Origin: Escherichia coli
GTDB taxonomy: Bacteria; Pseudomonadota; Gammaproteobacteria; Enterobacterales; Enterobacteriaceae
Direction: 5' to 3' (one strand)
DNA: 64,000 nucleotides
Assembly (NCBI RefSeq): GCF_011045215.1
Contig: NZ_CP049201.1
The position numbers and the translations under genes were made by a program. Shown in pieces: positions 10,747 through 60,589 of this stretch; position 1 is the stretch's first letter, and each line of letters starts with the position of its first letter. The notes beneath the pieces were generated by a model that searched no databases, had not been told where the DNA came from, and saw nothing but the letters and a program-made list of their open reading frames with translations.

Positions 10747-10754
10747 ATCCTCCT

Positions 10755-10778
10755 GCCCGCTGTTATGGCGGGCTTTTT
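10755..10778 (+). terminator. Rho-independent terminator of ompN
   Basis: GCCCGC-TGTTATG-GCGGGC followed by TTTTT. Confidence 0.8.
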
Positions 10779-10805
10779 CTGCTTATTCTTCCTCCTTTGA
10801 TCTAA

Positions 10806-11321
<516 letters not shown>

Positions 11322-13648: not shown

Positions 13649-13884
13649 GAAAGTTTCTCCCATCACTTTTACTTCATGATTTTATCATAAAATTTATGCA
13701 AAAATCAAGAAGTGACACCCTGCAAGCGATTGTAGACTTTCTCTTGTTTTCTTACGTTCCTGCTCTCCAATTGCGCAATTGATTTCTTCAACAATATGAG
13801 AGTACACATCATAAACCTCCGACTGCAGCCAGCAACCGGAGCCTCATTCTTCAGATACCAGAACAACTCACTGCGACCTATTCG

Positions 13885-14448: not shown

Positions 14449-14455
14449 AAAACAC

Positions 14456-15880
14456 CTACGCAATACGTATGAACAAACCAATCATGACACTGGCTGACCC
14501 GGCAGACCCGAGTTCATCGCCTGACAGTGCACGATATGACCCCGGCATACCACCACCAGAACCCCGCACATATACGGAAACGCTGCCGTTATATCCAACC
14601 CCGCTACCGGTCGTGCCGTGACACATAAATTCAACCGCGCTCAGACGTGACCCCGGATAGCTGTACCCGCGTTTTATCCGGCGGTCGGTGTCTGCGTCTC
14701 CCTCACCGTTACAGGCCGCCAGTACAAGACTGCCTGTACCGTACCAGCCGTCCGTGGTACCGGGAGCAATACCGGACAGAAGAGAGATAATGTCCTGTGA
14801 GGTCATCTTCAGATTTTCCCAGCCAGTCAGATAACCATTACCTGTTGTCCAGTAGCGGCTGTAATAAACATCGCCATTAATACCGTAGAAAATAATGGCC
14901 TTTGCTGTATATCGCGGCTCCGGTGGATTATTGCGTGCCTCAACCCACCGGATTCTGACCACCCCGTTAAACAACACACCTCCGGATATGATTTTACTGC
15001 CACCCTCAACAAAATATTCACCCGGCGTCGCATTCCTTACCCATGCCAGAAAATCATCCTCTGTGTTAAAACGGATACGCTCTGCGGGCAAAAAAATATG
15101 CCCAAAACCAAATGCGCCAGGTGTCGCCAGACGACCTTCAGTCCGGTCACGAATGTCGCTCTGTGGCATCATTGTGGCAGCGCTTTTCAGTCCAAGATTA
15201 TCACGGGATTCCTGCTGAGCCTCTTCACCTTCATCAGCCAGCTCTGACAGGCGATTCGCCGTTTTCAGTGTCGCAGATAACGCAGTATCAATATCTGCTC
15301 TGGCCTGCTCTGCACCGGATGCGGCCTGTTTAGCAGCTTCAGCGTCCTTTTTTACCTCTGCGGCGGCATTCTCAACCTGCGAGGCCAGATTTTCGGCCTG
15401 TTGTTTACCCTCCGCAACAGCGTCGGCGTTCTGCTGAACACCTTCCGCCAGTTTTTTTACCTCTTCTTTTGCCCGGGCGGCAGCATCTGCATGTTGCCCT
15501 GCCTGTCGTTCGCTTTCTGTTGCGGTTTCGGCACCCTGCTGCGCCTGCGCCACCATTTCCTCAAATCGTTTCACCACGTCGGGTTTGAGGTCGCCTTCAT
15601 CCAGGGCAGTCAGAAAATCGTTCAGCGTGCCGGGCTTTGAGTCGTCGTATACAGCAATATCGCCAACACAGTACTCGTCGCGCCAGCCCTGTTTCAGATA
15701 TACGCAATATTTTCCGGTCTGCGCCTCAAAACAGTACTCGCCACAGTTTCCTGTCACCACGTCGGCAACTGTGCGCATCACCACCTCTGAGGTGTTTACC
15801 CGGGATTTCAGAATAATGTGGCATCCGGACATGGAGATACCTGCGCCATCAATCAGCGCACCTGATATCACTACAGACAT
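14456..15880 (-). CDS. Side tail fibre protein, lambda Stf-like
   Basis: N-terminus ISGALIDGAGISMSGCHIILKSRVNTSEVV...YDDSKPGTLNDFL resembles lambda Stf; Ala/Glu-rich coiled-coil centre. Confidence 0.8.
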   Translation of the reverse strand: MSVVISGALIDGAGISMSGCHIILKSRVNTSEVVMRTVADVVTGNCGEYCFEAQTGKYCVYLKQGWRDEYCVGDIAVYDDSKPGTLNDFLTALDEGDLKPDVVKRFEEMVAQAQQGAETATESERQAGQHADAAARAKEEVKKLAEGVQQNADAVAEGKQQAENLASQVENAAAEVKKDAEAAKQAASGAEQARADIDTALSATLKTANRLSELADEGEEAQQESRDNLGLKSAATMMPQSDIRDRTEGRLATPGAFGFGHIFLPAERIRFNTEDDFLAWVRNATPGEYFVEGGSKIISGGVLFNGVVRIRWVEARNNPPEPRYTAKAIIFYGINGDVYYSRYWTTGNGYLTGWENLKMTSQDIISLLSGIAPGTTDGWYGTGSLVLAACNGEGDADTDRRIKRGYSYPGSRLSAVEFMCHGTTGSGVGYNGSVSVYVRGSGGGMPGSYRALSGDELGSAGSASVMIGLFIRIA

Positions 15881-19878: not shown

Positions 19879-21039
19879 TTATTCAACCTCTTCTAAACTG
19901 CTCACTCTGGACCCTCGGCGGAAATTATCATCATTTTTAACATACTCGTATGAATCCAGAATCAAACCAGATATGCGAAGTATATCTTCCGGATTAGTTA
20001 TATGTATCCTTTTACCATCCGTATCAAGTCGAGCTCGTCTTATTTCATTCAACTGAACTTCACTAAGCGAAATAGGTAAAGTTATAAATGAAGATTTTTT
20101 ATCATAAAATCTTAACAGCCATCTATTTGTTTTACCATTCAATAGTACACCGAAATATGACTCAGTATCTTTATATTCTATATTATCTTCTGTTTGTATG
20201 ATTTGTTTTACCCTTTCAAATAGCTCCAATTCTTTGGCTGTGGTTATTATGTTGGGGTTTTCTTCATCAACAATGGCGTTATTAACTTGTGTATCCGTTG
20301 CATCATTTTCTTTAGTTTGCTCTACCGGTTGTGTAGATAGCCCGGAAACCACCATTGCGCTAACAGCGCGCTCAACGGCCTGTTTAACTAATGGAGTCAC
20401 GAACTCAAGAAATCTCTGATTAAGTTGTCTCTCAATATTTGAACGACTAGCAACATATCGAACAAACTCCAGATCAACTTCACGAAGACTAGAACTGATT
20501 GTTTTAGTAAATGAATTCAAATAAACACTTTCTTCAGCCAGTGTCCGTAAAGCCTCTGGTTTGAATTTATCATAACGAAAACGAAATAATTGTGTAATAT
20601 CGGAGTGAGTTAGAGAATCCATTCTTAATTTTAAAAACGGCGTTGAATCCATTATGTTTTTTTGTTTCAAATCCGTAAAAAAACGCCATTCAACACCATT
20701 TGTAATGGCTGATATAGTAACTTCCGGTGTTGAATTAAAATATCTTGATAGCTGTGGGCAGTGATTATCAATTTGTTCTGAAAACGATTTCGCCTCAATG
20801 AACATCACAGGAACATCATGACAAAATAAAGCGTAATCAACCCGTTCATTAGCCTTAACCCCGGGGAAGTCAGCACTATACTCAGCTTTGACTTTTCTTG
20901 GATCATACGGAGTAAAACCAAGAATATCTAGTAATGGCATAATGAGTGCTTGTTTTGTCGTTTCTTCAGTTGTACAAAACACCCCCATTTTTGCAACATG
21001 CTCTGTGTGTATTTTTAACTTATTTGCAAAATTTTCCAT
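19879..21039 (-). CDS. PD-(D/E)xK nuclease-fold protein (HsdR-N/Mrr-like N-terminal domain) with unknown C-terminal domain; cargo gene
   Basis: Track ORF 19879..21054; ATG at 21039 with GGAGGAGA upstream; motif ...VDYALFCHDVPVMFIEAK... (D...E-x-K); own AT-rich upstream region and own terminator. Confidence 0.7.
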   Translation of the reverse strand: MENFANKLKIHTEHVAKMGVFCTTEETTKQALIMPLLDILGFTPYDPRKVKAEYSADFPGVKANERVDYALFCHDVPVMFIEAKSFSEQIDNHCPQLSRYFNSTPEVTISAITNGVEWRFFTDLKQKNIMDSTPFLKLRMDSLTHSDITQLFRFRYDKFKPEALRTLAEESVYLNSFTKTISSSLREVDLEFVRYVASRSNIERQLNQRFLEFVTPLVKQAVERAVSAMVVSGLSTQPVEQTKENDATDTQVNNAIVDEENPNIITTAKELELFERVKQIIQTEDNIEYKDTESYFGVLLNGKTNRWLLRFYDKKSSFITLPISLSEVQLNEIRRARLDTDGKRIHITNPEDILRISGLILDSYEYVKNDDNFRRGSRVSSLEEVE

Positions 21040-21188
21040 GCTTGTCTCCTCCATGGTAACAATATGTATTTTGCAAATCCGAAATAATATATGTCAATAT
21101 GCTCCAGCTTAGAAAATTACTCGCCCCCCTAAAATATCTCTCTACAGCACTCCAAACCAAGGTAAAAGTTTTATCATAAAACTGTGAT

Positions 21189-36439: not shown

Positions 36440-37768
36440 TTACAACTCCGCGTAATTACCGTGCGCGATGATCAATCCATAGGTGTAACAATCGAAAAGG
36501 TCATCAGCACGTTTATGCGCGTCTTTGTCTGCCAGGTGGAACCCGGCGATTTGTTTGATGAGGTGGTTTGCGGTTGTGCGCTTGAATGAAACGGTTTTGT
36601 CGTAAGCCTCGCGGGTAATTTTGCATTTACCCTGGTAATGGTGGCTGGAAGCCAGCACCGCGCGCTCGTCTTTCCCTTTGCTGGTTAACGCTGATTTAAT
36701 CGGCGTCATATCCCAGCCTTCGGTTTCCGCTTTCTGGTTGAGGATTGCGCCCATTGCGGCATCCTCCATGAATACCCCCTGACTCCCCAGGCGCGGGCGG
36801 CAGAGTTGCGCCAGCCGCTCGAGGTTGTCATAAACACCGGGGATATACTCAGGAAGCAGCGACGCTTTAATTTGCGTCACATCCCAGTCGATAACGGTCA
36901 GTTTCGGCTCATCGGAATACGTGGACTCATACGCGAAGTAAACCACGCCTGTCCCGTCGTTCTCCGTCCCGCCTTTCAGCGCCGTATCCATTACCGCAAA
37001 AATCATGTCGCAGTGTCGCGGCATCTCAACCGGCTGGCCATCCACCAGCAGCTTATCGACATCGAGTAACGCGTCTTTGGACCAGTCTACGAACTCTGCA
37101 AGATATTCCTGCTGCCAGACGCGCGGATCGGATTTCTTCTCCGTTTCCTCCAGTTCTTCTTTCGGAATATACGGATTCGATGAAGTTGGCGCATGGTGCA
37201 TAACAAATCCCAGGGATTCATCGTGGCATATCGCGTAGAAAAAATTGCTCTCGTCGATACCGTTTGGTGTGGAAAATACCCACGCACAGCCGCGGTAATC
37301 GACAAGCGTCGGGCGTATCGCTCGGGGCCAGATTTCCTCGAGCATTTCCGGCGATTTAGTGAATGCGGCCTCATCAATCAGCACAGCGTGATATTTACGC
37401 CCACGCCCGGCCAGTTTGTTATTGTCCGTTACCCAAAAGTCGATGCGCCCCCCATTACGGAGAATGATGCGCTTTTCATTTTTTGACTGACTGAGGATCA
37501 GCGGTTGCAGAACGGCGCTAATTTCATCCCAGATTTCCTGGTACTGGCGGTATTGCGCGGTAAAAATCCCCACCCTACCCGCGATAAGTTGCCCGGTGGT
37601 AGGAACGGCAAATTTCCGCGTAGCGAAACTGGTAGCGATGTTCACCAGCATCACCGTTTTACCCCAGCGACGACCACAGCATACCGCGTGGAAGCGTTCC
37701 TCTATTGCCGCCGTCCATGCAGCTATTTGCCCCTCATGAGGTTTTGGGAGGTAGATTTCAATCGACAT
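36440..37768 (-). CDS. Terminase large subunit
   Basis: 442 aa; Walker A (CGRRWGKT) near N-terminus; C-terminal nuclease-like region. Confidence 0.85.
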   Translation of the reverse strand: MSIEIYLPKPHEGQIAAWTAAIEERFHAVCCGRRWGKTVMLVNIATSFATRKFAVPTTGQLIAGRVGIFTAQYRQYQEIWDEISAVLQPLILSQSKNEKRIILRNGGRIDFWVTDNNKLAGRGRKYHAVLIDEAAFTKSPEMLEEIWPRAIRPTLVDYRGCAWVFSTPNGIDESNFFYAICHDESLGFVMHHAPTSSNPYIPKEELEETEKKSDPRVWQQEYLAEFVDWSKDALLDVDKLLVDGQPVEMPRHCDMIFAVMDTALKGGTENDGTGVVYFAYESTYSDEPKLTVIDWDVTQIKASLLPEYIPGVYDNLERLAQLCRPRLGSQGVFMEDAAMGAILNQKAETEGWDMTPIKSALTSKGKDERAVLASSHHYQGKCKITREAYDKTVSFKRTTANHLIKQIAGFHLADKDAHKRADDLFDCYTYGLIIAHGNYAEL

Positions 37769-38849
37769 TATCCACTCCCGGCATCGGCAGAGAGTTGTGG
37801 ATAATTATTTCGTTATTCTCACCACCCACGCCTTTTTTGAGGTTTTCAATCTCAGTGCGCAGCTTTTCGTTGCGAAGCCTCAGTCCTTCAAGCTCCAGAT
37901 CATTGCGACTGTCAGTTGCACCACCAGCAGAACTTCCTTTCGTCGCCATTATCAGCTTGATAAGTTCGCGCCGGGCGGCAGCCTTATCCTCCAGCAGGAT
38001 CTCAACACCAAATTTCCCGAGCTTTGCCCCTGCATATAATTGTCGCGCATCCCCATCAAGCAGAGTGGTATCAGCCATATAAAGCTGTCCCGTTCCCTCA
38101 CCGCAGCACTTCGGACAATCCGGATTGGGTATGGCGTTATCAACAAAGCCGAGGCCTCCATATTCCGGCTCGGGTTTGCCATCTCTGGAGGCCTGTGCCG
38201 CTGCCTTATCGAATTCTGCAATATCACGCCACTGGTAGAGGTGATTCTCGCCCCAGCAATAACGGCAGTTAACACGGCGAAATTGTGCCAACTGATTGGG
38301 GTCGGCCTGGACAATGGCCATCAACTGACTCACCAGTAAATCCAGGTCTGCGGTATAGCGTTTCTGATACTGATTGCGGAAGTAGCTGATAGCACGATAA
38401 ACCCTGGCATTTCTAAGCATACGGCTGGCGTTGCTGTTAGCTGTCGCACCTTGCCCCTCATAACCAGCCAGTCGGTATGCCTCTGTCGGCTTTTTCCCCT
38501 GAGCAACAAGCATCGCAAACTTAGCCTGCTGGTCAGAAATGCCGAATTCATCGGGGCAGAACGAAAATTCCTCCGCGTCGCCCTCATTCAGGCACGCATC
38601 GGATACTGGCTTTTTTTTCTGAGATTTTCCGTTCCGCTTTTGCGCAGTCTGCGCAGATTTTTTCTGCGCACTTTGTTGCGCAGTTTTGCGCATTTCTGTC
38701 TGCGCATTTTTCGGAGGTTTTTTGATGTAACGACGGGCTGTTGCGTAATTCAGTCCCCTTGCCTCACACCATGCCACCGGGGATACACCGGAGCGGGTGT
38801 ATTCAGCAATATATTCCTGCTGCAACGCCCCCCAGTCCGGTCTGCTCAT
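37758..38849 (-). CDS. Terminase small subunit (HTH N-terminus)
   Basis: 363-aa ORF overlapping the TerL start; N-terminal HTH, basic linker, coiled-coil C-terminus. Confidence 0.6.
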   Translation of the reverse strand: MSRPDWGALQQEYIAEYTRSGVSPVAWCEARGLNYATARRYIKKPPKNAQTEMRKTAQQSAQKKSAQTAQKRNGKSQKKKPVSDACLNEGDAEEFSFCPDEFGISDQQAKFAMLVAQGKKPTEAYRLAGYEGQGATANSNASRMLRNARVYRAISYFRNQYQKRYTADLDLLVSQLMAIVQADPNQLAQFRRVNCRYCWGENHLYQWRDIAEFDKAAAQASRDGKPEPEYGGLGFVDNAIPNPDCPKCCGEGTGQLYMADTTLLDGDARQLYAGAKLGKFGVEILLEDKAAARRELIKLIMATKGSSAGGATDSRNDLELEGLRLRNEKLRTEIENLKKGVGGENNEIIIHNSLPMPGVDNVD

Positions 38850-38852: not shown

Positions 38853-39104
38853 TTAGTCCTGATTTTTATCCACCCTGAGTAGTTCACGCAGGGCAAAGGC
38901 ATCCCCTTTTCTGGCAAGCTTAAACAATGCCGCCCGTAGTTCGGCTTCACCTTTCGCTCTGCCCTTACGGATGGATGCGTAAAAATCTGTCATTGCTTCC
39001 CGATTTTCTTTCAGTCGGTTCAGATCAACATCCAGAACGTCAGCGATTTGTTGTGCAGTCATCCGGCACGCTGCCAGAGACTCGACTTTCGAATACGGAA
39101 TCAT
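38853..39104 (-). CDS. Hypothetical small protein
   Basis: 83-aa ORF just upstream of TerS. Confidence 0.35.
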   Translation of the reverse strand: MIPYSKVESLAACRMTAQQIADVLDVDLNRLKENREAMTDFYASIRKGRAKGEAELRAALFKLARKGDAFALRELLRVDKNQD

Positions 39105-39990
39105 TTGTCACCCCCATTGATATGCAGGGTGTCTTCTTCCTGTATTTTTCGTGAAGGATTTTTACTGCAGCGTTGTTCCAGGTGACCTGATGGTGAATGC
39201 GTTTATGGCTGGCCCCCATCAGTGAGATTTTTACGCACGAGGGCGCATACATGACGGAGTAAAAACTTTTAACGTAGGTTCCGGAATCCAGATACAGCTC
39301 GGTCATTCCGCCGCTGTTTTTCTGCGTCTGTTTCTGCCCTAACTGGACAGCACCGATCGTCATAAACAATTCACCACAGCGACCGAGATTCGTGTACGTA
39401 TTCACATCCTCGTTAATGCGCCCCATGAATGAGAACGGTCGATCAACCGAACAGATAAAGCTGTTCATTGCCTTGCGTTTCACCCACGAAGCATGGCCGC
39501 CATTGTCACCAAGAAAATCCCCGCCCTGCGACATAGCGATGGAAAGCGCAGGTATTGATTCGTAGTACGCCAGCATTTCAGAAAGGATCGCATCCAGTTT
39601 TCTTATCGGGAAATAGGCCTGGTCATAGTTGCGATCCACCCGAAACTGAAACTCGTGATAATCATCATCGAGCTGAATGAAGTATTTACACCCGACCAGT
39701 TTTGCCAGGTCGAAACAGGCATTACGGGCGTAAAAAATTGAGCGGCGATCACCGAAATTATCGGCTTCGTCAAAACGACTGGCTATATCGGCTTTGGAAA
39801 ACACCAGCACCTGTTCACCAAATTCAGCTATGTACTGATGCCGTGTCTTATCTTCATCATCAACAACGATAAAAATTTTCCCGGTATAGCCAGCACGACG
39901 CAACGTCCGGTAAGTCAGAACTTTGTCCGGTCGCCCGTGAGTCAGAATAAAGGCGCAAAAATCATCACGCATATTCCTCCTCCCCGCCAT
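39040..39990 (-). CDS. Hypothetical protein with glycosyltransferase-like (GT-A-like) motifs
   Basis: N-terminal FILTHGRPD and later DDD motif (IQLDDDY) suggest a nucleotide-sugar transferase fold; alternative ATG at 39972. Confidence 0.4.
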   Translation of the reverse strand: MAGRRNMRDDFCAFILTHGRPDKVLTYRTLRRAGYTGKIFIVVDDEDKTRHQYIAEFGEQVLVFSKADIASRFDEADNFGDRRSIFYARNACFDLAKLVGCKYFIQLDDDYHEFQFRVDRNYDQAYFPIRKLDAILSEMLAYYESIPALSIAMSQGGDFLGDNGGHASWVKRKAMNSFICSVDRPFSFMGRINEDVNTYTNLGRCGELFMTIGAVQLGQKQTQKNSGGMTELYLDSGTYVKSFYSVMYAPSCVKISLMGASHKRIHHQVTWNNAAVKILHEKYRKKTPCISMGVTNDSVFESRVSGSVPDDCTTNR

Positions 39991-40753
39991 GCATGATCTC
40001 CACCATACGCTGCGTCATCCGGACAAAACCATTTTCGATGGCTTGCTGATAATCAATGATCACCAGTGCCGACTCCTCAAAAAGGCCCTGAATTTCAGCG
40101 GGGGCGTGAGCGTAATAGTCTGCAATTCTGCTGAAATTAAACACCGTGTGGCGTTCTGCCGCGCACAGGAGGAATTTTTCGATATCAGGCTCAAGGGACG
40201 CCGTACGTATCCGGCTGACCAGCTCCTGAGTTTTCGTATCGTCGTACAGTTCACTGATATCCGGTTCATCCCCTGACGGCTCATAAACAGGCGTATCAAT
40301 TTTCGTCGTGTACGGCTCATCCTCATTCGCTGTACCTGGCAAAACATCCGTTAATAGTTCGTCAATTTCTGTCGGGCAGAATCCTGTCAGGGAGATATCA
40401 AAATCAGCATTGATTAGGTCCGACAGCTCCATCCGTAACAGATCTTCATCCCAGCCAGCACTCATCGGCAGGCGATTATCAGCCAGGCGGTACGCCTTTT
40501 TCTGATCATCCGTCAGACCAGACAGAACAATGACCGGAACCGAATCCATTTTGAGCGCCTCAGCCGCCATAACACGCCCGTGCCCCGCAATAATTTCACC
40601 CTTTTCATCAATCAGCACCGGATTTGTCCAGCCGAATTGCTTAATGCTTTCAACCAGCTGTGTCACCTGTTCAGGAGAGTGTGTCCTTGCATTGTGCACA
40701 TACGGAGACAACTCTTGTAACAGTCGATAGACAATATTCAATTTTTCGCTCAT
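39965..40753 (-). CDS. ParB-like nuclease domain protein
   Basis: Track ORF 39965..40840; ATG at 40753 with GAGG upstream; ParB/Srx-type N-terminal motif ...TNPVLIDEKGEIIAGHGRVMAA... Confidence 0.75.
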   Translation of the reverse strand: MSEKLNIVYRLLQELSPYVHNARTHSPEQVTQLVESIKQFGWTNPVLIDEKGEIIAGHGRVMAAEALKMDSVPVIVLSGLTDDQKKAYRLADNRLPMSAGWDEDLLRMELSDLINADFDISLTGFCPTEIDELLTDVLPGTANEDEPYTTKIDTPVYEPSGDEPDISELYDDTKTQELVSRIRTASLEPDIEKFLLCAAERHTVFNFSRIADYYAHAPAEIQGLFEESALVIIDYQQAIENGFVRMTQRMVEIMHGGEEEYA

Positions 40754-41226: not shown

Positions 41227-41586
41227 TCATTTACTGGTATGAGTTCTGCATCGGGCTATTTCATTCCGGGCCTTACTGTCACCGCGACAGATACAACGCA
41301 CCGTGTCTCCGGTCAGCGTGGTAATGTAAGCCTCATCCTCTTTTTCTACCGAAATACATGGAATATCCCAGCCCCGGCAATACTCAATTTTTGCTGCCAA
41401 GTGAGTGTCACGCGGATAGAACTCCAGACGATACATATCCCCCAGGACATGCACTTCCTCAACCTGACGGCCATCTTTAGTTACCGTTATTTTTTTCAGT
41501 GCGTACATACGTACCTCCGTTCTTTCGTTTTTTGAGTAATAAAAAAGGCCGCCACAGCGACCTTTGCCAGTACGTTTACAAACCAA
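41227..41586 (-). CDS. Hypothetical Cys-containing protein downstream of endolysin
   Basis: 119-aa track ORF (internal start MYALKKITV... possible); no Rz-like features. Confidence 0.35.
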   Translation of the reverse strand: MVCKRTGKGRCGGLFYYSKNERTEVRMYALKKITVTKDGRQVEEVHVLGDMYRLEFYPRDTHLAAKIEYCRGWDIPCISVEKEDEAYITTLTGDTVRCICRGDSKARNEIARCRTHTSK

Positions 41587-42121
41587 CGCGCGCTTTCATC
41601 CAGCCATAGACAAACGACTCATTGGCCTCGCGTTTCTCTGCCAGCTCCAGATAACGCTCGCCCTGCGTACAGTTCAGGGCTTTCACCAGTACCAGTTCAC
41701 CATCCCTGCTGCGATTTTTCAGATATGCCCGTAACGCATTAAGAGTACGCGGCCCGATGCGTCCATCTGCATCCATATCCGGATAGAGTTTCCCGCGCAG
41801 GTTGAAAACGTTCAGCCAGCGTTGAAGCATTCTGGACGCCACAGTTGGCCCCATGTTCACGCCCGTATCGCACAACTCTGAGGCAATATCCGGAGACAGG
41901 TTCGCAACCAGGTCGAATCGTGGTCCGTACCAGTAGTCCGCCTCGAGTATTTCCAGCGCCTGCTCACGCGTCAGGTCACGCATATCGCCATGATAACCGT
42001 GTGCGCGGGCAACTTTTTCAGTAATGCCCCATCTGGTCGGTCCACCTTTATCATCCGGATGATTGATGTAACCGCCCTCTTTTCCCAGAATTTCGTCAAA
42101 AATTTCATCTTTCGACTTCAT
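41576..42121 (-). CDS. Endolysin, GH108-type muramidase with peptidoglycan-binding domain
   Basis: Track ORF starts at TTG; ATG at 42121 gives MKSKDEIFDEILGKEGGYINHPDDKGGPTRWGIT..., characteristic GH108 N-terminus. Confidence 0.85.
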   Translation of the reverse strand: MKSKDEIFDEILGKEGGYINHPDDKGGPTRWGITEKVARAHGYHGDMRDLTREQALEILEADYWYGPRFDLVANLSPDIASELCDTGVNMGPTVASRMLQRWLNVFNLRGKLYPDMDADGRIGPRTLNALRAYLKNRSRDGELVLVKALNCTQGERYLELAEKREANESFVYGWMKARVGL

Positions 42122-42122
42122 A

Positions 42123-42413
42123 TCAGCGCCTTCGTAATACAAGGATTTTTGATACGTTCCCGCGTGCTCGTATCACCAGCACGCAGAACACCAGGTTAAT
42201 CAGGACGACCAGCCAGTTACCGGGTGGAAAGCGACCACACAGATAACAAAGCGGCGCAAAGGCATAAAGCAGCATCAGCAGCCAGGCCAGCCACGACATC
42301 AGCGGTTTATGTCTCGACTCACCACGACGATAAAAAAAGAGCGTCAGCACGATAACCGTGCTTAACACCACATTCAGTAATCCGGGAAGGTTACTTAACA
42401 TTACCGCCTCCAC
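42123..42413 (-). CDS. Putative lysis membrane protein (second holin/antiholin-like)
   Basis: 96-aa hydrophobic ORF between holin and endolysin. Confidence 0.4.
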   Translation of the reverse strand: MEAVMLSNLPGLLNVVLSTVIVLTLFFYRRGESRHKPLMSWLAWLLMLLYAFAPLCYLCGRFPPGNWLVVLINLVFCVLVIRARGNVSKILVLRRR

Positions 42414-42780
42414 CCCGCAGACGGGAGAACAGCCCGGATACCAGCGATGCGATATCCTGCTGGTGGATGAATGAGAGAATCTTCACTGACACCACCGATA
42501 CCAGTACCGCACAAAGCGCGTCGAGAGATGTGCTGTGGAGATTCAGTTTTTCAACCAGGTAAGACGCCATCACATCCGCCCCCAGCACGCCAACAATGAA
42601 CGACACCAGAAAATGCGCTGCCACACGCCAGACAGAAATCTTCTGTGGTATCGTGGCCACAAACAGCGCCCCTGCGAATGCACCAAACACAATCCCGAAA
42701 TCCGTTCCGGTAAACAGCCCGAATACCGTCGCCCCGCCGAGCGCCGCAGCCGTGCCGGAACCGGATAAGGGTTCAGACAT
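42391..42780 (-). CDS. Holin
   Basis: Track ORF 42391..42906; ATG at 42780 with GGAGA upstream gives MSEPLSGSGTAAALGG... with ~3 TM segments; first gene of lysis cassette. Confidence 0.6.
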   Translation of the reverse strand: MSEPLSGSGTAAALGGATVFGLFTGTDFGIVFGAFAGALFVATIPQKISVWRVAAHFLVSFIVGVLGADVMASYLVEKLNLHSTSLDALCAVLVSVVSVKILSFIHQQDIASLVSGLFSRLRGGGGNVK

Positions 42781-42796
42781 ACTTTTTCTCCTGTCA

Positions 42797-42820
42797 ATAA
42801 AAAAGGGCCTCTGTCGGCCC
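42797..42820 (-). terminator. Rho-independent terminator ~15 nt upstream of the holin RBS
   Basis: Minus strand: GGGCC-GACAGA-GGCCC followed by UUUUAUU. Confidence 0.6.
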
Positions 42821-43277
42821 GTAAAAAAACACCCCGTCAAAGGCACCCGCAGATACCTTTTGTGTGGTGTTATCTGGTGTTTTCTGGTGTGGTGTGTGCA
42901 GGACACAGATGTGAAAAAGGTCCGCTGGTACGAACCCTGTATATGGATAAAAAAATGCCCGTCAGGAGACGGGCCAGAGCATTCATCGTGTAGTAATAGA
43001 ATTATATTTATATATGGTCGCCACCAGAATGAGTCGTCAACCTACAAAGCCATCCTGGCTTACTGTACGTGTGCGCATGGAACAGGTAACGACTCATTCT
43101 GCTAACGACGTTTACAAGTAATAATCACATACCATTATGTAATACAAAAAAAAGCAGCACTGAAACTGTAACCGTTCAGATATTACAGCATGAAGAAAAA
43201 CAATAGTACCTACAAAGCTGTTCTCCGCGAAAATTCGCCAGTGCTGATAAAGCTATGCCTCGTTTGTTTTACAGGAG

Positions 43278-43349
<72 letters not shown>

Positions 43350-43352
43350 ATA

Positions 43353-43428
<76 letters not shown>

Positions 43429-44144: not shown

Positions 44145-44600
44145 TCAAGCCATTTTTTGAGCAAATGATTCTCGCATGGGAATGTATAGCGCATACTCAG
44201 CAACAGCCAACCAATTAGCAATTCGCTTTTCGCATGTGCTAAAACACCACTCTGGGTGTGCATCATTTAGCAATTCAGCCATTTTTCGCTTAGTCATCCC
44301 CCGCCCCTCATAGCGTTGCCGGAGAATACAAATCAATCCCGGATGATCCGCCATAACTTCGCCAATAACTCTGTCGATTATTAATGCCTCTGAATCGGCA
44401 CAATGTGCCAGCCAGCTCTTTTGCTTGCCGTTAATCATATCCCGCAAAAAAGCCTCAAGTTCAGGCTTGTCCAGACCTGCTTTTTTCATCCTCCGGAGCG
44501 CCTCGTTAATTGCCGTTTTTGTCAGCTTTTTAGAGGTCAACATCTGGTTAAACATATTCCCTGTCTTACCGCCACCAATATACGACCAGCGCCCCCACAT
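44145..44600 (-). CDS. Putative late-gene antiterminator Q
   Basis: Track ORF 44145..44807; ATG at 44600 avoids overlap with upstream gene; call rests on position (after nin-type genes, before terminator/tRNAs/lysis) and weak family resemblance. Confidence 0.45.
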   Translation of the reverse strand: MWGRWSYIGGGKTGNMFNQMLTSKKLTKTAINEALRRMKKAGLDKPELEAFLRDMINGKQKSWLAHCADSEALIIDRVIGEVMADHPGLICILRQRYEGRGMTKRKMAELLNDAHPEWCFSTCEKRIANWLAVAEYALYIPMRESFAQKMA

Positions 44601-44683
44601 ACGCAGTTTTCCCTGAATCCAGACACTTTCCAGCGTAGTGAGACGAAGGTGTTCTCCGCTTTTTCCTGTATTCGTTGGGTAAA

Positions 44684-44974
44684 TCACAAATATCCCTCCT
44701 TTCTCCAGATTTCTTGTGTGCGAAAAACACCTTCTGCATGCATCAGGCGCAATTCTTCTTTGGTGTAATCGATGGTTTTTACTCTCCCGTCGATTAAATC
44801 GTGGCACGAGCTACAGGCAATCGCCGCCTGCATATCGTGTGGTTTTGTCGCTGTTCCACACGTCCCCGCCAGCCTGTAATGTGCCAGCACAGACGTTCCG
44901 GGATTGTGATTGCAGTAGCCAGGAATTCTGACCTGGCACATCTGGCCCCGCGCCGCTTTACGCAAATTCACCAT
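44684..44974 (-). CDS. YbcO-like (DUF1364) Cys-rich nin-region protein
   Basis: 96-aa ORF with Cys/His pattern (CNHNPG...CSSCHDLIDG) as in DLP12 ybcO-type proteins. Confidence 0.5.
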   Translation of the reverse strand: MVNLRKAARGQMCQVRIPGYCNHNPGTSVLAHYRLAGTCGTATKPHDMQAAIACSSCHDLIDGRVKTIDYTKEELRLMHAEGVFRTQEIWRKEGYL

Positions 44975-54985: not shown

Positions 54986-56887
54986 ATGAGCATAAAACAA
55001 CACTTCCTGTTACGGAAAGCGAAAAAATCATCCGGTGAACCTGACGCAGTTCTGTGGGCAAGCGACGATCTCGAATCGACCAGTGCCACTCTGGACTACC
55101 TGATTGTTAAGTCAGGTAAAAAACTGAGCAACTATTTTAAAGCTGTTGCTACGAATTTTCCTGTCGTTAACGACCTGCCCCCAGAAGGGGAGATCGATTT
55201 TACGTGGTGTGAACGCTATCAACTCGGCAAGGACTCCATCACCTGGGAACTAAAACCAGGTGCAGCACCAGACGACGTTCACCATCAGGAGAATATCCCG
55301 GAAACTGAAGAACTGGCTGGAGACCAGGAAGAAAACGCGCAGGCGGACGCTCACGGGGATTGCCAGGATTGCGAAGTTCCTGTAGCCACACTCAGTCTTA
55401 CTCATCGTTTCCTTCATCTCTTCTTTTTCGGTCAGATGGAAGGTGGAAAATACAGTAGTCACGCCACGCCGGAACAGCGCAATACCGTCATCCGGATGGA
55501 GCTGGATACGGAGGACAGCTACCTCCAGAGTCTGCTTACAGCAGTACGCTCTCATCCTGAACTGGATAAGCTGACAAACCACCATCTTGGCAGACTGGCG
55601 GAGTCTGTATCCAGAGTGTTTACCCACACAGAAACCCGTTGCATCAGCCCCGCTGAATTCGACAAATTCATTTCCACCTGGATGAAAACTGATTATCTGG
55701 ATCAGGGATTACTGACAAAAGAATGGGCGAAGGGAAACTGCGTATCTGAAATCAATCGCACCCCGTCGGGCGCTAATGCCGGTGGCGGTATCCTTACCGA
55801 CCGTGGAGAAGGTTTTGTCCATGATGATGCATCAGTAGCGCGTGACGTAGCCGCTGGCGTACTGGCACGTTCAATGGATATCGATATTTACAATCCACAT
55901 CCAGCACACGCTAAACGTATTGGGGAAATTGTCGCTGAAAATAAACCGCCATTTTCTGTTTTTTTCAGCAAATTCATCACCATGCCTGGCCACAAGGATT
56001 TCTCCCGCGCCATCGTGGTTGCGTCCGTGAAAGAAGCGCCAGTCGGTATAGAGGCTACCCCACACCATGTCACTGAATATCTGAACAGGGTGCTGACTGA
56101 AACCGATCATGCCAACCCTGATCCGGAAATCGTGGATATTGCCTGCGGTCGCTCCTCTGCCCCGATGCCACAGCGTGTAACAGAAGAAGAAAAACCGCAA
56201 CCATCTTGCGCAATGGCAGATGAACAGGCAACGGCTGAAACAGTGGAACCGGATACAAGTGAACATCATCAGGACACGCAGCCGCTGGATGCCAAGTCAC
56301 AGGCCGATGCGAAATATCAGAAACTGCGGGAAGAACTCCATGAAGCCCGGAAAAACATTCCGCCCAAAAATCCTGTCGATACAGACAAAATGCTGGCAGT
56401 CCATCGCGGTGAGTTCGTTGAAGGAATTAGCGACCCGAATGATCCGAAATGGGTGAAGGGAATTGAAACCCGCGATTCTGTGAACCAGAACCTGCCAGAA
56501 ACGGAAAAAACCAGTCAGGATGTGAAACAACCTGAGCCAGTAGTGCAACGGGAACCGGAAATAGTCTGCACCGCCTGCGGTCAGAGCGGTGGCGGCAACT
56601 GCCCTGATTGTGGCGCGGTGATGGGCGACGCAACATATCAGGAAACATTCGATGAAGAGAATCAGGCTGAAACTCAGGAAAATGATCCGGAGGAAATGGA
56701 AGGCACTGAACCATCATTAGAAAAACTCGACTGGAAAAGACAAGTGGTGATTGCGGCTGTTTATGGTTTGTGTGCGAATCCTGCAGGTATAGCCTCAGCG
56801 CCATTAATTCCGGGTATTGCAATGATGATTGCCAACAAGCTTGAAAATTTTGGGGTGACGGATGATGAGCACATACCCGATTTTTGA
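54986..56887 (+). CDS. Large hypothetical early-left protein (633 aa), acidic, C-terminal CxxC...CxxC and hydrophobic tail
   Basis: Long ORF between immunity region and gam; motif [16 protein letters not shown] then hydrophobic [30 protein letters not shown]; no family recognised. Confidence 0.6.
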
Positions 56888-57161
56888 TCGCATTGAAGAG
56901 CTGGCATGGTCACGCCACTACCAGCAGATCGTTCGCGAAGAAAAAGAAACGGAGCTGGCAGACGACCTGGAAAAAGGTCTACCCCAGCACCTGTTTGAAT
57001 CGCTCTGCATCGACCATTTGCAACGCCACGGTGCCAGCAAACAGGCAATCAGTCGCGCATTTGATGACGATGTTGAATTTCAGGAACGCGTGGCGGAACA
57101 CATCCGGTACATGGTTGAAACCATTGCTCGTCACCAGGTTGATATTGATTTGAAGGTATAA
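56862..57161 (+). CDS. gam: Gam, RecBCD inhibitor (lambda Gam-like)
   Basis: 99 aa; ...[42 protein letters not shown]... closely matches lambda Gam; precedes bet. Confidence 0.85.
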
Positions 57162-57166
57162 AACAA

Positions 57167-57952
57167 ATGAGTACAGCACTTGCAACACTGGCCGGGAAGC
57201 TGGCTGAACGTGTCGGCATGGATTCTGTCGACCCACAGGAACTGATCACCACTCTTCGCCAGACAGCATTTAAAGGCGATGCCAGCGATGCGCAGTTCAT
57301 CGCATTGCTGATCGTCGCCAACCAATACGGCCTTAATCCGTGGACGAAAGAAATTTACGCCTTCCCTGATAAGCAGAACGGCATCGTTCCGGTGGTGGGC
57401 GTTGATGGCTGGTCCCGCATCATCAATGAAAACCAGCAGTTTGATGGCATGGACTTTGAGCAGGACAATGAATCCTGTACATGCCGGATTTACCGCAAGG
57501 ACCGTAATCATCCGATCTGCGTTACCGAATGGATGGATGAATGCCGCCGCGAACCATTCAAAACCCGCGAAGGCAGAGAAATCACCGGACCGTGGCAGTC
57601 GCATCCCAAACGAATGTTGCGGCATAAAGCCATGATTCAGTGTGCCCGTCTGGCCTTCGGATTTGCTGGTATCTATGACAAGGATGAAGCCGAGCGCATT
57701 GTCGAAAATACCGCATACACTGCAGAACGTCAGCCAGAACGCGACATCACTCCGGTTAACGATGAAACCATGCAGGAGATTAACACTCTGCTGATCGCCC
57801 TGGATAAAACATGGGATGACGACTTATTGCCGCTCTGTTCCCAGATATTTCGCCGCGACATTCGCGCATCGTCAGAACTGACACAGGCCGAAGCAGTGAA
57901 AGCTCTTGGATTCCTGAAACAGAAAGCCACTGAGCAGAAGGTGGCAGCATGA
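57167..57952 (+). CDS. bet: Bet (Red-beta) single-strand annealing protein
   Basis: 261 aa, [35 protein letters not shown]..., essentially lambda Bet. Confidence 0.95.
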
Positions 57953-58629
57953 CACCGGACATTATCCTGCAGCGTACAGGGATCGACGTGAGAGCTGTCG
58001 AACAGGGGGATGATGCATGGCACAAATTACGGCTCGGCGTCATCACCGCTTCAGAAGTTCACAACGTGATAGCAAAGCCCCGCTCAGGAAAGAAGTGGCC
58101 TGACATGAAAATGTCCTACTTCCACACCCTGCTGGCTGAGGTTTGCACCGGTGTGGCTCCGGAAGTTAATGCTAAGGCGCTGGCCTGGGGAAAACAGTAC
58201 GAGAACGACGCCAGAACCCTGTTTGAATTCACTTCCGGCGTGAATGTTACTGAATCCCCGATCATCTATCGCGACGAAAGTATGCGCACCGCCTGCTCTC
58301 CCGATGGTTTATGCAGTGACGGCAACGGCCTTGAACTGAAATGCCCGTTTACCTCCCGGGATTTCATGAAATTCCGGCTCGGTGGTTTCGAGGCAATAAA
58401 ATCGGCTTACATGGCCCAGGTGCAGTACAGCATGTGGGTGACGCGAAAAGATGCCTGGTACTTTGCCAACTATGACCCGCGTATGAAGCGTGAAGGCCTG
58501 CATTATGTCGTGGTTGAGCGGGATGAAAAGTACATGGCGAGTTTTGACGAGATGGTGCCGGAGTTCATCGAAAAAATGGACGAGGCACTGGCTGAAATTG
58601 GTTTTGTATTTGGGGAGCAATGGAAATGA
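57949..58629 (+). CDS. exo: Exo (Red-alpha) 5'-3' exonuclease
   Basis: 226 aa, [40 protein letters not shown]..., essentially lambda Exo. Confidence 0.95.
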
Positions 58630-59353: not shown

Positions 59354-60589
59354 ATGTCTAAATTACCAACAGGTGTCGAGATTCGAGGTAAATACATTCG
59401 CATCTGGTTCATGTTTCGAGGAAAACGATGCCGGGAAACATTGAAAGGCTGGGAGGTTACTAACAGTAACATTAAAAAAGCCGGGAATTTAAGAGCGTTG
59501 ATAGTTCATGAAATCAATTCCGGTGAATTTGAGTATTTAAGACGTTTCCCCCAGTCCGGCACTGGGGCAAAAATGGTGACAACTAGGGTCATAAAAACGT
59601 TCGGGGAGCTTTGTGATATCTGGACAAAAATTAAAGAGACAGAGTTAACAACAAACACAATGAAGAAAACGAAATCACAATTAAAAACACTCAAGATAAT
59701 AATTTGTGAGAGTACCCCGATATCGCATATTCGTTATAGCGATATCTTAAACTACCGGAATGAACTGCTGCATGGAGAAACGCTTTACCTGGATAATCCA
59801 AGATCCAACAAAAAAGGAAGAACCGTGCGCACAGTTGATAACTATATCGCCCTACTCTGTTCGCTGTTACGTTTTGCGTATCAGTCGGGATTTATATCAA
59901 CCAAACCATTTGAAGGAGTAAAAAAATTACAGCGAAACAGAATAAAGCCTGACCCGTTATCTAAAACAGAATTCAATGCATTAATGGAAAGTGAAAAAGG
60001 ACAGAGCCAGAACTTATGGAAATTTGCCGTTTACTCAGGACTTCGTCACGGGGAACTGGCAGCTCTGGCGTGGGAGGATGTGGATCTCGAGAAGGGAATT
60101 GTGAATGTCAGAAGAAACCTGACGATACTTGATATGTTCGGTCCCCCAAAAACAAATGCCGGGATCCGGACAGTAACACTACTGCAGCCTGCTCTTGAAG
60201 CACTGAAGGAGCAATACAAACTGACCGGACATCATCGCAAAAGCGAAATCACCTTTTATCATAGGGAGTACGGCAGAACCGAAAAGCAAAAACTGCATTT
60301 TGTTTTCATGCCCAGGATGTGTAACGGAAAACAGAAACCTTATTACTCGGTAAGCAGTTTGGGTGCGAGATGGAATGCAGCAGTAAAACGTGCTGGTATT
60401 CGCCGCCGTAATCCGTACCATACGCGGCATACTTTTGCCTGCTGGCTGTTGACGGCAGGAGCGAACCCGGCGTTTATAGCCAGCCAGATGGGGCATGAAA
60501 CTGCGCAGATGGTGTATGAAATTTACGGTATGTGGATTGATGACATGAACGACGAACAGGTAGCCATGTTGAATGCGCGGTTATCGTAA
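59354..60589 (+). CDS. Site-specific tyrosine integrase
   Basis: 411 aa; C-terminal catalytic region HTRHTFACWLLTAGANPAFIASQMGHETAQMVYEIYG (R...HxxR...Y); next to attR. Confidence 0.9.
   Translation: MSKLPTGVEIRGKYIRIWFMFRGKRCRETLKGWEVTNSNIKKAGNLRALIVHEINSGEFEYLRRFPQSGTGAKMVTTRVIKTFGELCDIWTKIKETELTTNTMKKTKSQLKTLKIIICESTPISHIRYSDILNYRNELLHGETLYLDNPRSNKKGRTVRTVDNYIALLCSLLRFAYQSGFISTKPFEGVKKLQRNRIKPDPLSKTEFNALMESEKGQSQNLWKFAVYSGLRHGELAALAWEDVDLEKGIVNVRRNLTILDMFGPPKTNAGIRTVTLLQPALEALKEQYKLTGHHRKSEITFYHREYGRTEKQKLHFVFMPRMCNGKQKPYYSVSSLGARWNAAVKRAGIRRRNPYHTRHTFACWLLTAGANPAFIASQMGHETAQMVYEIYGMWIDDMNDEQVAMLNARLS

Follow-up and report, generated by a model that had tools for sequence, protein, structure and literature searches.

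A ParB-like protein and a TAGT-family glycosyltransferase linked ahead of the terminase genes of an Escherichia coli prophage: a candidate DNA-directed glycosylation module of tailed viruses

Precedents for the two proteins

Glycosylation of phage DNA is a classic means of counter-defence. To our knowledge, every understood pathway for it begins with a hydroxymethylated pyrimidine, and all characterised DNA-acting enzymes of the TAGT glycosyltransferase family use as acceptor a hydroxyl on a pre-modified base or sugar; canonical DNA offers no such hydroxyl except at its ends. Among the characterised family members, the T6-type second glucosyltransferase acts on DNA (PMC13390438), and JGT-like phage GT-A enzymes act on 5hmC, the literature ascribing an R...DDD...EDY/F motif both to GT-A DNA glycosyltransferases of phages and to JGT, the base-J glucosyltransferase of trypanosomes (bioRxiv 10.1101/2023.12.21.572611). 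A separate body of work describes ParB-like proteins with an NBD-linker-CTD layout and no DNA-binding domain, which serve as activators of their cognate phage T-dioxygenases with an effect specific to dsDNA (PMC13229309). The window analysed here, a stretch of 64,000 nucleotides of Escherichia coli DNA, contains adjacent genes for a ParB-like protein and a TAGT-family glycosyltransferase, and thus may be compared with both precedents.

The transferase is like the T2/T6 beta-glucosyl-HMC-alpha-glucosyltransferase, the trypanosome JGT and the phage 5hmC GT-As in family, GT-A fold and R...DDD...ED motif, and like the characterised phage TAGTs in being phage-encoded, soluble and often in the company of further glycan-elaborating enzymes. 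The relation is nonetheless remote, as tblastn with the transferase at 1e-5 did not reach the T2/T6 enzymes. Unlike the characterised members, it stands in a setting where no acceptor supply, whether TET/JBP, a C5-MTase with TET or a hydroxymethylase, was found, and its subfamily has an obligate partner protein, a requirement not known for the characterised members. GREB1 belongs to the same Pfam family as the E. coli enzyme, but this large animal protein O-GlcNAcylates the oestrogen receptor (PMC7968844) and has neither a ParB partner nor a phage context.

The partner resembles the ParB176 component of 5mYOX176/ParB176 in its NTP-binding-type N-domain, short helical segment, disordered linker of about 50 aa and C-domain, and the two systems further share the lack of a DNA-binding domain, adjacency to a DNA-modifying enzyme and a location often near terminase (PMC13229309), as judged from the AF2 layout against the published description. 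However, the enzyme here is a glycosyltransferase and not a dioxygenase, no dioxygenase was found, and it is the linker motif with the C-domain that appears indispensable, whereas the N-domain can be absent. Fusions of ParB domains to DNA methyltransferases (phrog_498; PADLOC MTase_II; the ParB-CTPase fold survey PMC12704722) have the nearest N-domains and a similar prophage setting, and in one viral locus (L061) a ParB-MTase fusion lies side by side with ParB-TAGT, directly upstream of it and ahead of terminase. In contrast to these fusions, the partner here is a separate polypeptide serving a glycosyltransferase, and its linker and C-domain replace the covalent fusion. The N-domain is also like that of the chromosomal and plasmid ParB-Noc-KorB CTPase clamps in fold and sequence, but the partner lacks a recognisable HTH or parS-binding domain, carries GHGR in place of GERR, is acidic and has another C-domain; as with the ParB of canonical ParABS systems, the comparison also fails at ParA and the HTH domain, neither of which is recognised here.

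Gene order and prophage setting

The partner gene occupies 39965..40753 (minus strand, as do all genes, domains and motifs located below) and encodes 262 aa from the start MSEKL, the mechanical ORF extending to 40840; its RefSeq relatives are named ynaK or 'ParB/Srx family N-terminal domain-containing protein'. The transferase gene, whose E. coli product RefSeq names 'GREB1-related', lies at 39040..39990 as its longest ORF (316 aa), with a likely start at ATG 39972, the second ATG and the one chosen by RefSeq/PGAP, which would give 310 aa. The stop of the first gene and the start of the second share 8 nt at 39965..39972, as ATGCGTGA, and a Shine-Dalgarno sequence, GGAGGAGG, precedes ATG 39972 within the 3' end of the ParB-like gene; this overlap and the position of the ribosome-binding site suggest that the two genes are translationally coupled. 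Stop/start overlaps of 4-17 nt are typical among 78 related loci. Both genes are under strong purifying selection, dN being 0.16-0.28 with synonymous sites saturated in comparisons with homologues at 64-78% amino-acid identity.

Upstream of the pair lies a lysis cassette (41576..42906) composed of two holin-like ORFs (42123-42906) and a GH108-like endolysin (41576-42142), after which comes a terminator-like hairpin (41544-41565). Downstream follow a small HTH-like, terS-like ORF at 38853..39104 (longest ORF 83 aa, 69 aa in annotated relatives, a PGAP CDS of 210 nt in L001; phrog_309 at 1.7e-22) with kinship to part of the terminase small subunits, the terminase small subunit gene terS at 37758..38849 (363 aa; phrog_51 at 2e-71; PF03592 in relatives) and the gene of the terminase large subunit, TerL, at 36440..37768 (442 aa; RefSeq 'terminase'; Terminase_6N/6C in relatives). 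The first-pass annotation had described two overlapping genes between a lysis cassette and the terminase small subunit, and this observation is confirmed for both reading frames and both flanks. The host element is an intact lambdoid prophage of 49 kb at the Rac locus. A promoter scan between the lysis cassette with its terminator and the pair gave no promoter-like site better than those in shuffled sequence, so that expression of the pair with the late operon is deduced from position only. The pair is found in 862 of 5426 complete E. coli genomes (about one in six), and in the Rac element of K-12 a remnant of the module persists as ynaK.

The transferase and its partner

On its profile matches and predicted fold, the 316-aa protein is a TAGT-family GT-A glycosyltransferase. 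It matches Pfam TAGT (PF20691) at 2.6e-34 over residues 14-228 and phrog_842 at 4.7e-103 over its full length, and the AF2 model (pLDDT 87, pTM 0.84) matches GT-A enzymes in Foldseek at 1e-5 to 1e-4, glycogenin being included as a generic GT-A only. The earlier proposal of a GT-A-like protein was made from motifs; the HMM and structure searches now carried out bear it out in finding a GT-A fold, and of the motifs named FILTHGRPD is present and DDD is encoded at 39661-39669 in the translation. All AFDB50 neighbours are TAGT proteins and the homologues form 1328 clusters at 50% identity, while searches for a PDB sequence homologue, an NCBIfam family and a PADLOC model for the transferase returned none. 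Invariant in the family are R14, D102-104 and E188/D189, together with the basic residues R83, R166, K167, K235 and R258, and the R...DDD...ED(Y/F) pattern is therefore present as R14...D102-D104...E188-D189. Its centre is the DDD of LDDDY (residues 102-104; 39661..39669), a putative DxD-type metal and nucleotide-sugar motif in which D102 is invariant and D103 and D104 are at least 90% conserved. The C-terminal tail (residues 281-310; 39043..39132) is specific to the E. coli lineage, disordered (pLDDT <50), overlaps the start of the next ORF and is missing from homologues of about 285-290 aa. Both proteins are soluble, and neither has a TM segment (maximal Kyte-Doolittle 19-residue means of 1.08 and 1.24). 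Elsewhere in the family, an N-terminal extension of 180 aa in some TAGTs (P0150) gave no Pfam match and does not correspond to the partner domain; what looks like a CTD-TAGT fusion was met only once, in P0081, and could stem from a frameshift.

The partner begins with a ParB/Srx domain of NTP-binding type (residues 1 to about 100; 40454..40753), and here the first-pass annotation agrees with the PF02195, PDB profile and Foldseek matches alike. The protein matches phrog_620 (ParB-like) at 2.9e-86 and ParB_N (PF02195) at 4.7e-6; the family profile reaches ParB/Noc/Spo0J chains in the PDB at about 5e-10, with coverage of the N-domain only; and Foldseek returns CTP-bound ParB 6sdk at 5.6e-7, plus sulfiredoxin and SerK. 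The profile matches of both proteins lie well outside what chance would produce. The N-domain is nearest in sequence to the ParB portions of fusions with phage DNA methyltransferases (phrog_498 at 5.6e-49; PADLOC MTase_II at 5.7e-37). N21/R23, G57 and N93 are conserved. The GERR box reads G57-H58-G59-R60, and so the Glu needed for CTP hydrolysis in the GxxR/GERR box is absent; across the partner family it is replaced by His or Asn, and the Arg is not universal, being missing in several members. TIGR00180 scores 35.4 bits, below its cutoff of 58.45, the search for an HTH in the partner gave no Pfam match, the middle region being acidic, and no ParA was found among the neighbours of the pair in the window, in the prophage annotation or in the 80 loci. 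The protein as a whole has a pI of 4.4 (family median 4.6, net charge about -21).

Beyond the N-domain lies an acidic linker motif, EPYTTKIDTPVYEPSGDEPDI (40256..40318; family consensus YTxKIxxPxYEPxGxKP), in which Y148, Y157 and P164 are invariant; partner proteins of about 130 aa that stand alone keep this motif too, with conservation of at least 90%. The AF2 model of the partner is of low confidence at 138-152 and ordered from about residue 160. There follows a predicted five-helix acidic C-terminal domain (residues 173-256; 39986..40237; AF2 pLDDT >90), the most conserved portion of the partner, with F194, A199, R201, Y214, Q222, E226, D234 and G242 invariant, for which there was no Pfam match, no PDB sequence match and no Foldseek match among the top 50. 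In L098, L100 and L102 the C-domain is encoded on its own, directly beside TAGT and without the ParB N-domain. Judged by conservation, then, the conserved partner element is the linker motif YTxKIxxPxYEP with the acidic C-domain, and not the ParB N-domain. The first-pass annotation had missed this C-terminal half as a conserved element. The C-domain was also considered as a cryptic di-iron oxidase, a candidate that was dropped since ExxH pairs are absent (by eye only).

An alternative is that the transferase acts on protein and not on DNA, in the most specific form by O-glycosylating the invariant Tyr/Thr of its partner's YTxKIxxPxYEP linker, which would be held through docking of the C-domain in a glycogenin-like or GREB1-like manner, and that the glycosylated ParB-like protein is the functional product. 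TAGT-type enzymes use hydroxyl acceptors, and the TAGT domain of GREB1 O-GlcNAcylates protein (PMC7968844). In addition, conservation in the partner is highest at a motif rich in hydroxyls, within a linker modelled at low confidence, and this motif is kept where the N-domain is lost; its very acidic character makes DNA binding unlikely; a source of hydroxymethylated base was not found; and glycogenin is among the structural neighbours, although only as a generic GT-A. However, a protein acceptor is without phage precedent, and the ParB activators show how a conserved non-catalytic partner can be accounted for without a substrate role. The repeated association with DNA methyltransferases, a ParB-MTase fusion and replication genes suggests nucleic acid instead, and tandem TAGTs with sulfo- and methyltransferases resemble known DNA glycan hypermodification clusters (bioRxiv 10.1101/2023.12.21.572611). 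On balance, we consider a protein acceptor less likely than DNA, but a serious rival to it.

Linkage across viruses and the acceptor

A ParB homologue stands immediately upstream of the transferase, with overlapping stop and start, in 78 of 80 viral loci (transferase identity 52-100%). When 1,629 ORFs from the 80 loci were clustered as a guilt-by-association sample, ParB and TAGT were the only families shared across them, the remainder being terminases and lineage-specific genes. The flanking genes are all exchanged while the pair stays adjacent, and the downstream TerL belongs to at least six families (five PHROG families and the window's own cluster). The pair also adjoins terminase genes in Lactobacillus phages, a Porphyromonas phage (27% identity) and Nocardia NTR1, lies about 3 kb upstream of TerL in the haloarchaeal virus HHTV-2, and is present in metagenomic contigs with other terminase types. 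Among the Lactobacillus phages, c5 (31.8 kb) carries the pair, has a cos site and is probably virulent. Partner-only loci sit among DnaB, PolA, clamp, RecA, RusA, and C5 and N6/N4 DNA methyltransferases, in one case with a C5-methyltransferase two genes upstream. Fusions and neighbours of TAGT elsewhere include tandem TAGT, TAGT-sulfotransferase, TAGT-SAM methyltransferase and an extra GT1, and these glycan-elaborating combinations are compatible with glycan build-up on one acceptor.

Such linkage bears on the possibility that the two genes are unrelated neighbours, the ParB-like protein being a phage nuclease or partition factor and the transferase an independent moron. ParB-like domains reportedly can act as NTPases or as nucleases that nick DNA (PMC5512222), and the region before the terminase or at the genome end commonly hosts accessory genes. 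This explanation is nevertheless very improbable in view of the adjacency with overlapping frames in 78 of the 80 loci despite exchange of the flanks, the partner C-domain that accompanies TAGT even where the ParB domain is lacking, the absence of ParA and the transferase start inside the 3' end of the ParB-like gene.

Prophages frequently carry O-antigen-modifying glycosyltransferases, and the general GT-A fold is common to many envelope glycosyltransferases. The first-pass annotation had accordingly offered lysogenic conversion as an alternative, in which the transferase would modify a surface glycan of the lysogen (O-antigen, ECA or capsule). However, both proteins are soluble and without TM segments, unlike the TM glycosyltransferase of Gtr-type conversion, and no GtrA/GtrB-type flippase or bactoprenol transferase is found among the neighbours. 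The genes lie in the late packaging operon, between lysis and terminase functions, and not at the attachment site, by the integrase or under a lysogenic promoter; the ParB-like partner is obligate; and the pair also occurs in a probably virulent Lactobacillus phage with a cos site, in a haloarchaeal virus and beside replication genes. The surface-glycan proposal thus finds little to sustain it, and we give it scarcely any probability.

The search for an enzyme that could make a conventional acceptor relied on annotation, Pfam and PHROG calls, together with a greedy ORF map of the whole window and PHROG scans of prophage ORFs without annotation, and a very divergent oxidase could escape it. Neither a TET/JBP dioxygenase nor a pyrimidine hydroxymethylase (dCMP/dUMP) was found in the whole 49-kb prophage (ORF map, PHROG scans, and PGAP/Pfam of near-identical prophages), and the 80 related loci, covered to a distance of 10 kb, and phage c5 (31.8 kb) likewise gave none. 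The literature searched gave no experimental report of modified DNA in phages carrying the pair, and nothing relevant on ParB with TAGT or on HHTV-2 DNA modification. It could be that the transferase is conventional and acts on a hydroxymethyl-pyrimidine or another pre-modified base, the precursor coming from an unrecognised phage enzyme or from some hosts, so that here the enzyme would be dependent or idle. This has the precedent of the TAGT family, several prophage ORFs remain without annotation, and a C5-methyltransferase is present at one partner-only locus; oxidases that have diverged may escape recognition, because thousands of 5mYOX-like contigs carry no TET/JBP Pfam annotation (PMC13229309). 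However, a third co-occurring gene family is absent across the 80 loci, there is no candidate in the 49-kb prophage or in phage c5, and the purifying selection and the presence of the pair in 862 of 5426 complete E. coli genomes speak against its being idle. A pre-modified base as the acceptor is thus improbable in our estimate. Glycosylation of the 3'-OH ends of DNA was also considered and dropped, because the pair is present in cos phages, which must ligate their ends.

Proposed model and its meaning

The results establish which fold and family each protein belongs to, that the two are obligately linked, where they lie and that they are under purifying selection, and no known hydroxymethyl-pyrimidine maker was found. 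We propose that the two genes make up a glycosylation module of tailed viruses that is complete in itself, has two components and is most likely directed at DNA, a reading to which we give roughly even chances. In this model, catalysis would fall to the TAGT protein, as a soluble GT-A enzyme that depends on metal and uses a nucleotide-sugar donor, and the linker motif and acidic helical C-domain would dock to the transferase or regulate it. In the E. coli lineage, the added ParB/Srx N-domain may let the enzyme reach dsDNA or stay on it, by analogy with the thymine dioxygenase activators and the ParB domains of methyltransferase fusions. The pair is probably carried on the Q-antiterminated late transcript, just ahead of terS/TerL, and this late position would have replicated phage DNA modified shortly before packaging and shielded from host restriction in the next cell. 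Counter-restriction is the most likely role of the pair, which would be expressed late. Several findings count against a DNA target: the partner is acidic and without a recognisable HTH, which is odd for a DNA-loading factor; the GERR Glu is absent, the Arg is not universal and the N-domain is dispensable in some lineages; no acceptor-making enzyme was found; and GREB1, a TAGT relative, glycosylates protein. The DNA-modification or anti-restriction module suggested in the first-pass annotation gains from family precedent and from very strong conserved linkage, but the TET/JBP enzyme or hydroxymethylase that would complete it in the classical form was not found. The more specific proposal, that the pair glycosylates canonical (not pre-oxidised) DNA or some other non-classical nucleic-acid position by means of an acidic adaptor and an optional ParB domain, is possible but doubtful.

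The module is compact, at two genes, very widespread and mobile, and has no recognised hydroxymethylation step. It would reveal either a new acceptor chemistry on DNA or a protein-directed system within a family assumed to act on DNA, and the analysis pinpoints a small unnamed domain, the linker motif with the C-domain, as the probable actual partner of the transferase. The re-use by phages of ParB as a helper of DNA-modifying enzymes would be extended from dioxygenases to glycosyltransferases. As the module resides in ordinary E. coli prophages, with the ynaK remnant in addition, the question is directly testable by standard genetics and nucleoside mass spectrometry. If glycosylation of canonical DNA, or of another non-classical nucleic-acid position, proves true, roughly a sixth of complete E. 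coli genomes would carry a new kind of DNA modification, as would viruses, both temperate and virulent, of Proteobacteria, Firmicutes, Bacteroidota, Actinobacteria and Haloarchaea.

The gene pair in its prophage

The window is a segment of Escherichia chromosome in which an apparently intact lambdoid prophage (~11.4-60.6 kb) occupies the Rac attachment locus, flanked by uspF/ompN on one side and by intR (59354-60589), then ttcA, on the other. Most prophage genes are carried on the minus strand, in the order Q-like antiterminator (44145-44807), tRNA-Gly(UCC) and tRNA-Thr(UGU) (43277-43428, minus strand), holins and endolysin (41576-42906, minus strand), a small ORF of unknown function (41227-41586, minus strand; phrog_33497), the ParB-like gene, the transferase gene, a small HTH ORF, terS, TerL, portal, and head and tail genes. 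The same tRNA duo occurs at the matching site of the related prophage L001. A terminator-like hairpin (41544-41565) lies directly past the endolysin stop, no obvious Rz/Rz1 spanin pair was identified in the window's lysis cassette, and the small ORF probably starts at an internal Met, as its phrog_33497 match spans residues 27-119. Within the tail/baseplate module, an embedded 391-aa endonuclease-like gene (19879-21054, minus strand; phrog_4225, 9.8e-149), whose relatives are annotated 'type I restriction endonuclease' and at which GC falls locally to 0.36, looks like inserted cargo or a defence gene. At the prophage left end, the gene for a 368-aa HTH and ImmA/IrrE-type metalloprotease-like regulator (phrog_2439, phrog_87) overlaps a 229-aa ORF without a PHROG match, and the two (11874-13666, minus strand) could form a pair with a cargo or defence role. 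On the plus strand (54986-58629), lambda-type Bet (57167-57952) and Exo (57949-58629) directly follow a 633-aa RecE-like N-terminal fragment (phrog_607), an arrangement that points to a mosaic recombination module.

An ORF check of the window recovers both members of the pair exactly where the first-pass annotation had placed them, and the translation contains the FILTHGRPD and DDD motifs that it had quoted. The ParB-like gene (39965-40753, minus strand) encodes 262 aa, and the longest transferase ORF (39040-39990, minus strand) encodes 316 aa, or 310 aa from the second ATG, at 39972, which is the RefSeq start. The sequence GGAGGAGG lies ahead of this ATG, which shares the stretch ATGCGTGA with the ParB stop codon; such an overlap suggests translational coupling. 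The pair sits 3' of the lysis genes and directly 5' of terS; a promoter scan gave no convincing promoter of its own, and its position suggests expression together with the packaging genes. Among homologues at 64-78% amino-acid identity, dN is 0.16-0.28 and synonymous sites are saturated.

The transferase and its ParB-like partner

The transferase matches the Pfam TAGT family (PF20691) at 2.6e-34 and, over its full length, PHROG 842 ("beta-glucosyl-HMC-alpha-glucosyltransferase") at 4.7e-103; close relatives are labelled "GREB1-related protein" in RefSeq, and the family comprises 1328 clusters at 50% identity. No sequence homologue was found among PDB chains. An AlphaFold2 model (pLDDT 87, pTM 0.84) built from an alignment of 41 transferases has solved-structure neighbours that are all GT-A (ColGalT1, K4CP, SunS, SpsA, GnT-I, and glycogenin; E ~1e-5 to 1e-4, TM ~0.4), and its AFDB50 neighbours are TAGT proteins without exception. 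The GT-A fold proposed for the 316-aa protein is thus borne out by family, model, and structural matches, and the first-pass reading, which was staked on a glycosyltransferase fold, survives on this point. Residues conserved in the alignment are R14, D41, R83, D102-D104 (LDDDY), G151/D152, R166/K167, N187-E188-D189, R258, H260, H261, and W265, and the resulting R...DDD...ED pattern is shared with phage GT-A DNA glycosyltransferases and trypanosome JGT (bioRxiv 10.1101/2023.12.21.572611). The protein is mildly basic (pI 8.6), and its C-terminal 30 residues are disordered and specific to the E. coli lineage. Many E. coli database entries (P0007, P0023, P0036, P0041-P0045) run from transferase residues 1 to 230-270 into another phage domain, such as tail-fibre or NlpC/P60; such joins presumably arose by deletion as Rac-type prophages decayed, or else through errors in gene calling.

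The ParB/Srx-type domain that had been assigned to the partner holds for its first ~100 residues (Pfam 4.7e-6; family profile against solved ParB/Noc/Spo0J, ~5e-10), with Foldseek matches to CTP/CDP-bound ParB, Noc, KorB, PadC, sulfiredoxin, and SerK. Nearest to it are the ParB domains fused to phage DNA methyltransferases (phrog_498, 5.6e-49; PADLOC MTase_II, 5.7e-37). Identity as a partition ParB was rejected, with a score under the TIGR00180 cutoff, no HTH match, and no ParA neighbour. In an alignment of 39 partner proteins, the GERR box (here GHGR) has its hydrolytic Glu replaced family-wide and lacks the Arg in some members, and the strongest conservation falls not in the ParB domain but in a linker motif and a C-domain. 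The motif, YTxKIxxPxYEPxGxKP (40256-40318, minus strand), has invariant Y148, Y157, and P164; the five-helix C-domain (residues 173-256; 39986-40237, minus strand) has invariant F194, A199, R201, Y214, Q222, E226, D234, and G242, is modelled at pLDDT >90, and has no Pfam match and no PDB sequence match. Residues 138-152 are disordered in the model. The partner is strongly acidic (pI 4.4; family median 4.6, net charge ~-21).

Linkage, distribution, and variants

Across 80 viral contigs with transferase relatives at 52-100% identity, the immediate upstream gene is a ParB homologue, stop and start overlapping, in 78; the remaining two comprise a locus at a contig end and one whose upstream ORF gave no ParB match. 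When the 1,629 ORFs of the 80 loci were clustered all against all, no other universally shared family emerged. Downstream in viral loci come a small terS-like protein and then TerL, the latter from at least six families (PHROGs 2, 9, 15, 38, and 5653, and the window's own cluster), and metagenomic contigs keep the pair-terminase order with Terminase_4/TerL, Terminase_2/Terminase_6, and GpA-type terminases. Among cultured phages, the order recurs in Lactobacillus phage phi jlb1, in Nocardia phage NTR1, in a Porphyromonas gingivalis phage at just 27% identity, and in the 31.8-kb genome of Lactobacillus phage c5 (cos - ParB - TAGT - terS - TerL); in Halovirus HHTV-2, the pair (gp21-gp22) is separated from the downstream TerL by ~3 kb with eight small ORFs. 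The first-pass annotation had also offered lysogenic conversion, by which the transferase would modify a cell-surface glycan. This is unlikely, given that both proteins are soluble, Gtr-type machinery is absent, and the position is that of a late operon; moreover, the pair is found in an archaeal virus and in c5, which we take to be virulent and in which a cos site is seen.

Among complete E. coli genomes, 862 of 5426 carry the pair's 2.2-kb region (at least 80% coverage). K-12 ynaK (in L104, MG1655 1425377-1425980) corresponds to codons 1-89 of the ParB-like gene at 88.8% identity, the rest of that gene, with the C-domain, and the entire transferase gene being deleted from Rac; the neighbouring ydaY is unrelated. 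In some relatives, as in K-12, trkG separates the ParB gene from the lysis genes.

A search with the linker and C-domain alone returned >400 proteins, mostly of 128-140 aa and beginning 10-20 residues before YTxKI, which these short proteins keep at ≥90% conservation. All three stand-alone cores located on long contigs adjoin a TAGT gene: L098 (6001-7228; neighbours DnaB, RusA, and a C5 DNA methylase), L100 (6001-8163; PolA, sliding clamp, RecU, RecA, and a second TAGT), and L102 (6001-7273; an N6/N4 methylase and NAD-salvage genes), where a 115-aa ORF adjoining the partner might be a split-off N-domain. These pairs sit amid replication, recombination, and modification genes, not beside a terminase, and the short-partner viral loci L054 and L089 likewise have no terminase downstream. 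Because the core adjoins TAGT without ParB, the invariant unit is the motif and C-domain plus TAGT, and the ParB N-domain is an add-on, tied in this sample to the terminase-proximal position. L089 holds two partner-TAGT pairs (9577-10861 and 13095-15228), the partner being short in one pair and a 431-aa ParB in the other, and in L061 (7924-10858) a ParB-DNA-methyltransferase fusion lies directly upstream of a ParB-TAGT pair.

Variants of the module include two TAGTs, in tandem or fused, a TAGT-sulfotransferase fusion (P0166; L012 3418-5190), a fusion of TAGT with a class-I SAM methyltransferase (P0128), an accompanying cytidylyltransferase-like gene, and neighbouring GT1 or radical-SAM genes, the latter just upstream of ParB in L010. 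A further TAGT (P0150; L010 80-3270) bears an unassigned 180-aa N-terminal extension. The glycan-building extras of the variants resemble the multi-enzyme glycan hypermodification clusters of phage DNA (bioRxiv 10.1101/2023.12.21.572611).

A model for the module

Taken as a whole, the pair is best read as a two-component module for glycosylating DNA. This model proposes that the GT-A enzyme would be the catalyst, with the partner as its dedicated adaptor or activator. The analogy is to ParB-like proteins that turn on their cognate thymine dioxygenases in phages, specifically on dsDNA, and in which mutations of NTP-site residues matter little (PMC13229309). The partner and those activators have in common the layout of NBD, short helices, disordered linker, and CTD, with no DNA-binding domain. 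Replicated DNA would be modified ahead of encapsidation, presumably to counter restriction, a purpose suggested by family precedent and by the presence of DNA methyltransferase and anti-defence genes nearby. The acceptor weakens this reading, as characterised DNA-acting TAGT enzymes all transfer to a hydroxyl on a base that is already modified, or on a sugar that such a base carries (PMC13390438; bioRxiv 10.1101/2023.12.21.572611), and no TET/JBP (5mYOX) dioxygenase, thymidylate-synthase-like hydroxymethylase, or C5-methyltransferase/oxidase pair was found in the window's prophage (ORF map, PHROG scans, and the annotation of its near-identical counterparts), within 10 kb of the pair in the 80 loci, or in the complete c5 genome. 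It is further weakened by the acidity of the partner, which suits DNA loading poorly, and by the capacity of the TAGT family to act on proteins, as GREB1 does (PMC7968844). Because of these same points, the main rival is that the enzyme O-glycosylates protein, most specifically the invariant Tyr/Thr in its own partner's linker.

The TAGT family, the ParB/Srx fold, ParB-methylase fusions, and ParB-activated dioxygenases are already known, and ParB homologues in hypermodification clusters had been noted, at least as that earlier work is cited in PMC13229309. In a NEB survey, ~65% of GT-containing contigs, unlinked to 5mYOX or ThyS, were set aside (bioRxiv 10.1101/2023.12.21.572611). The literature reached gave no account of the precursor-less two-gene ParB-TAGT as a unit, of the partner-specific linker and C-domain, or of the near-universal siting ahead of unrelated terminases. 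The ParB-TAGT module matters in that it is frequent in E. coli and open to direct testing.
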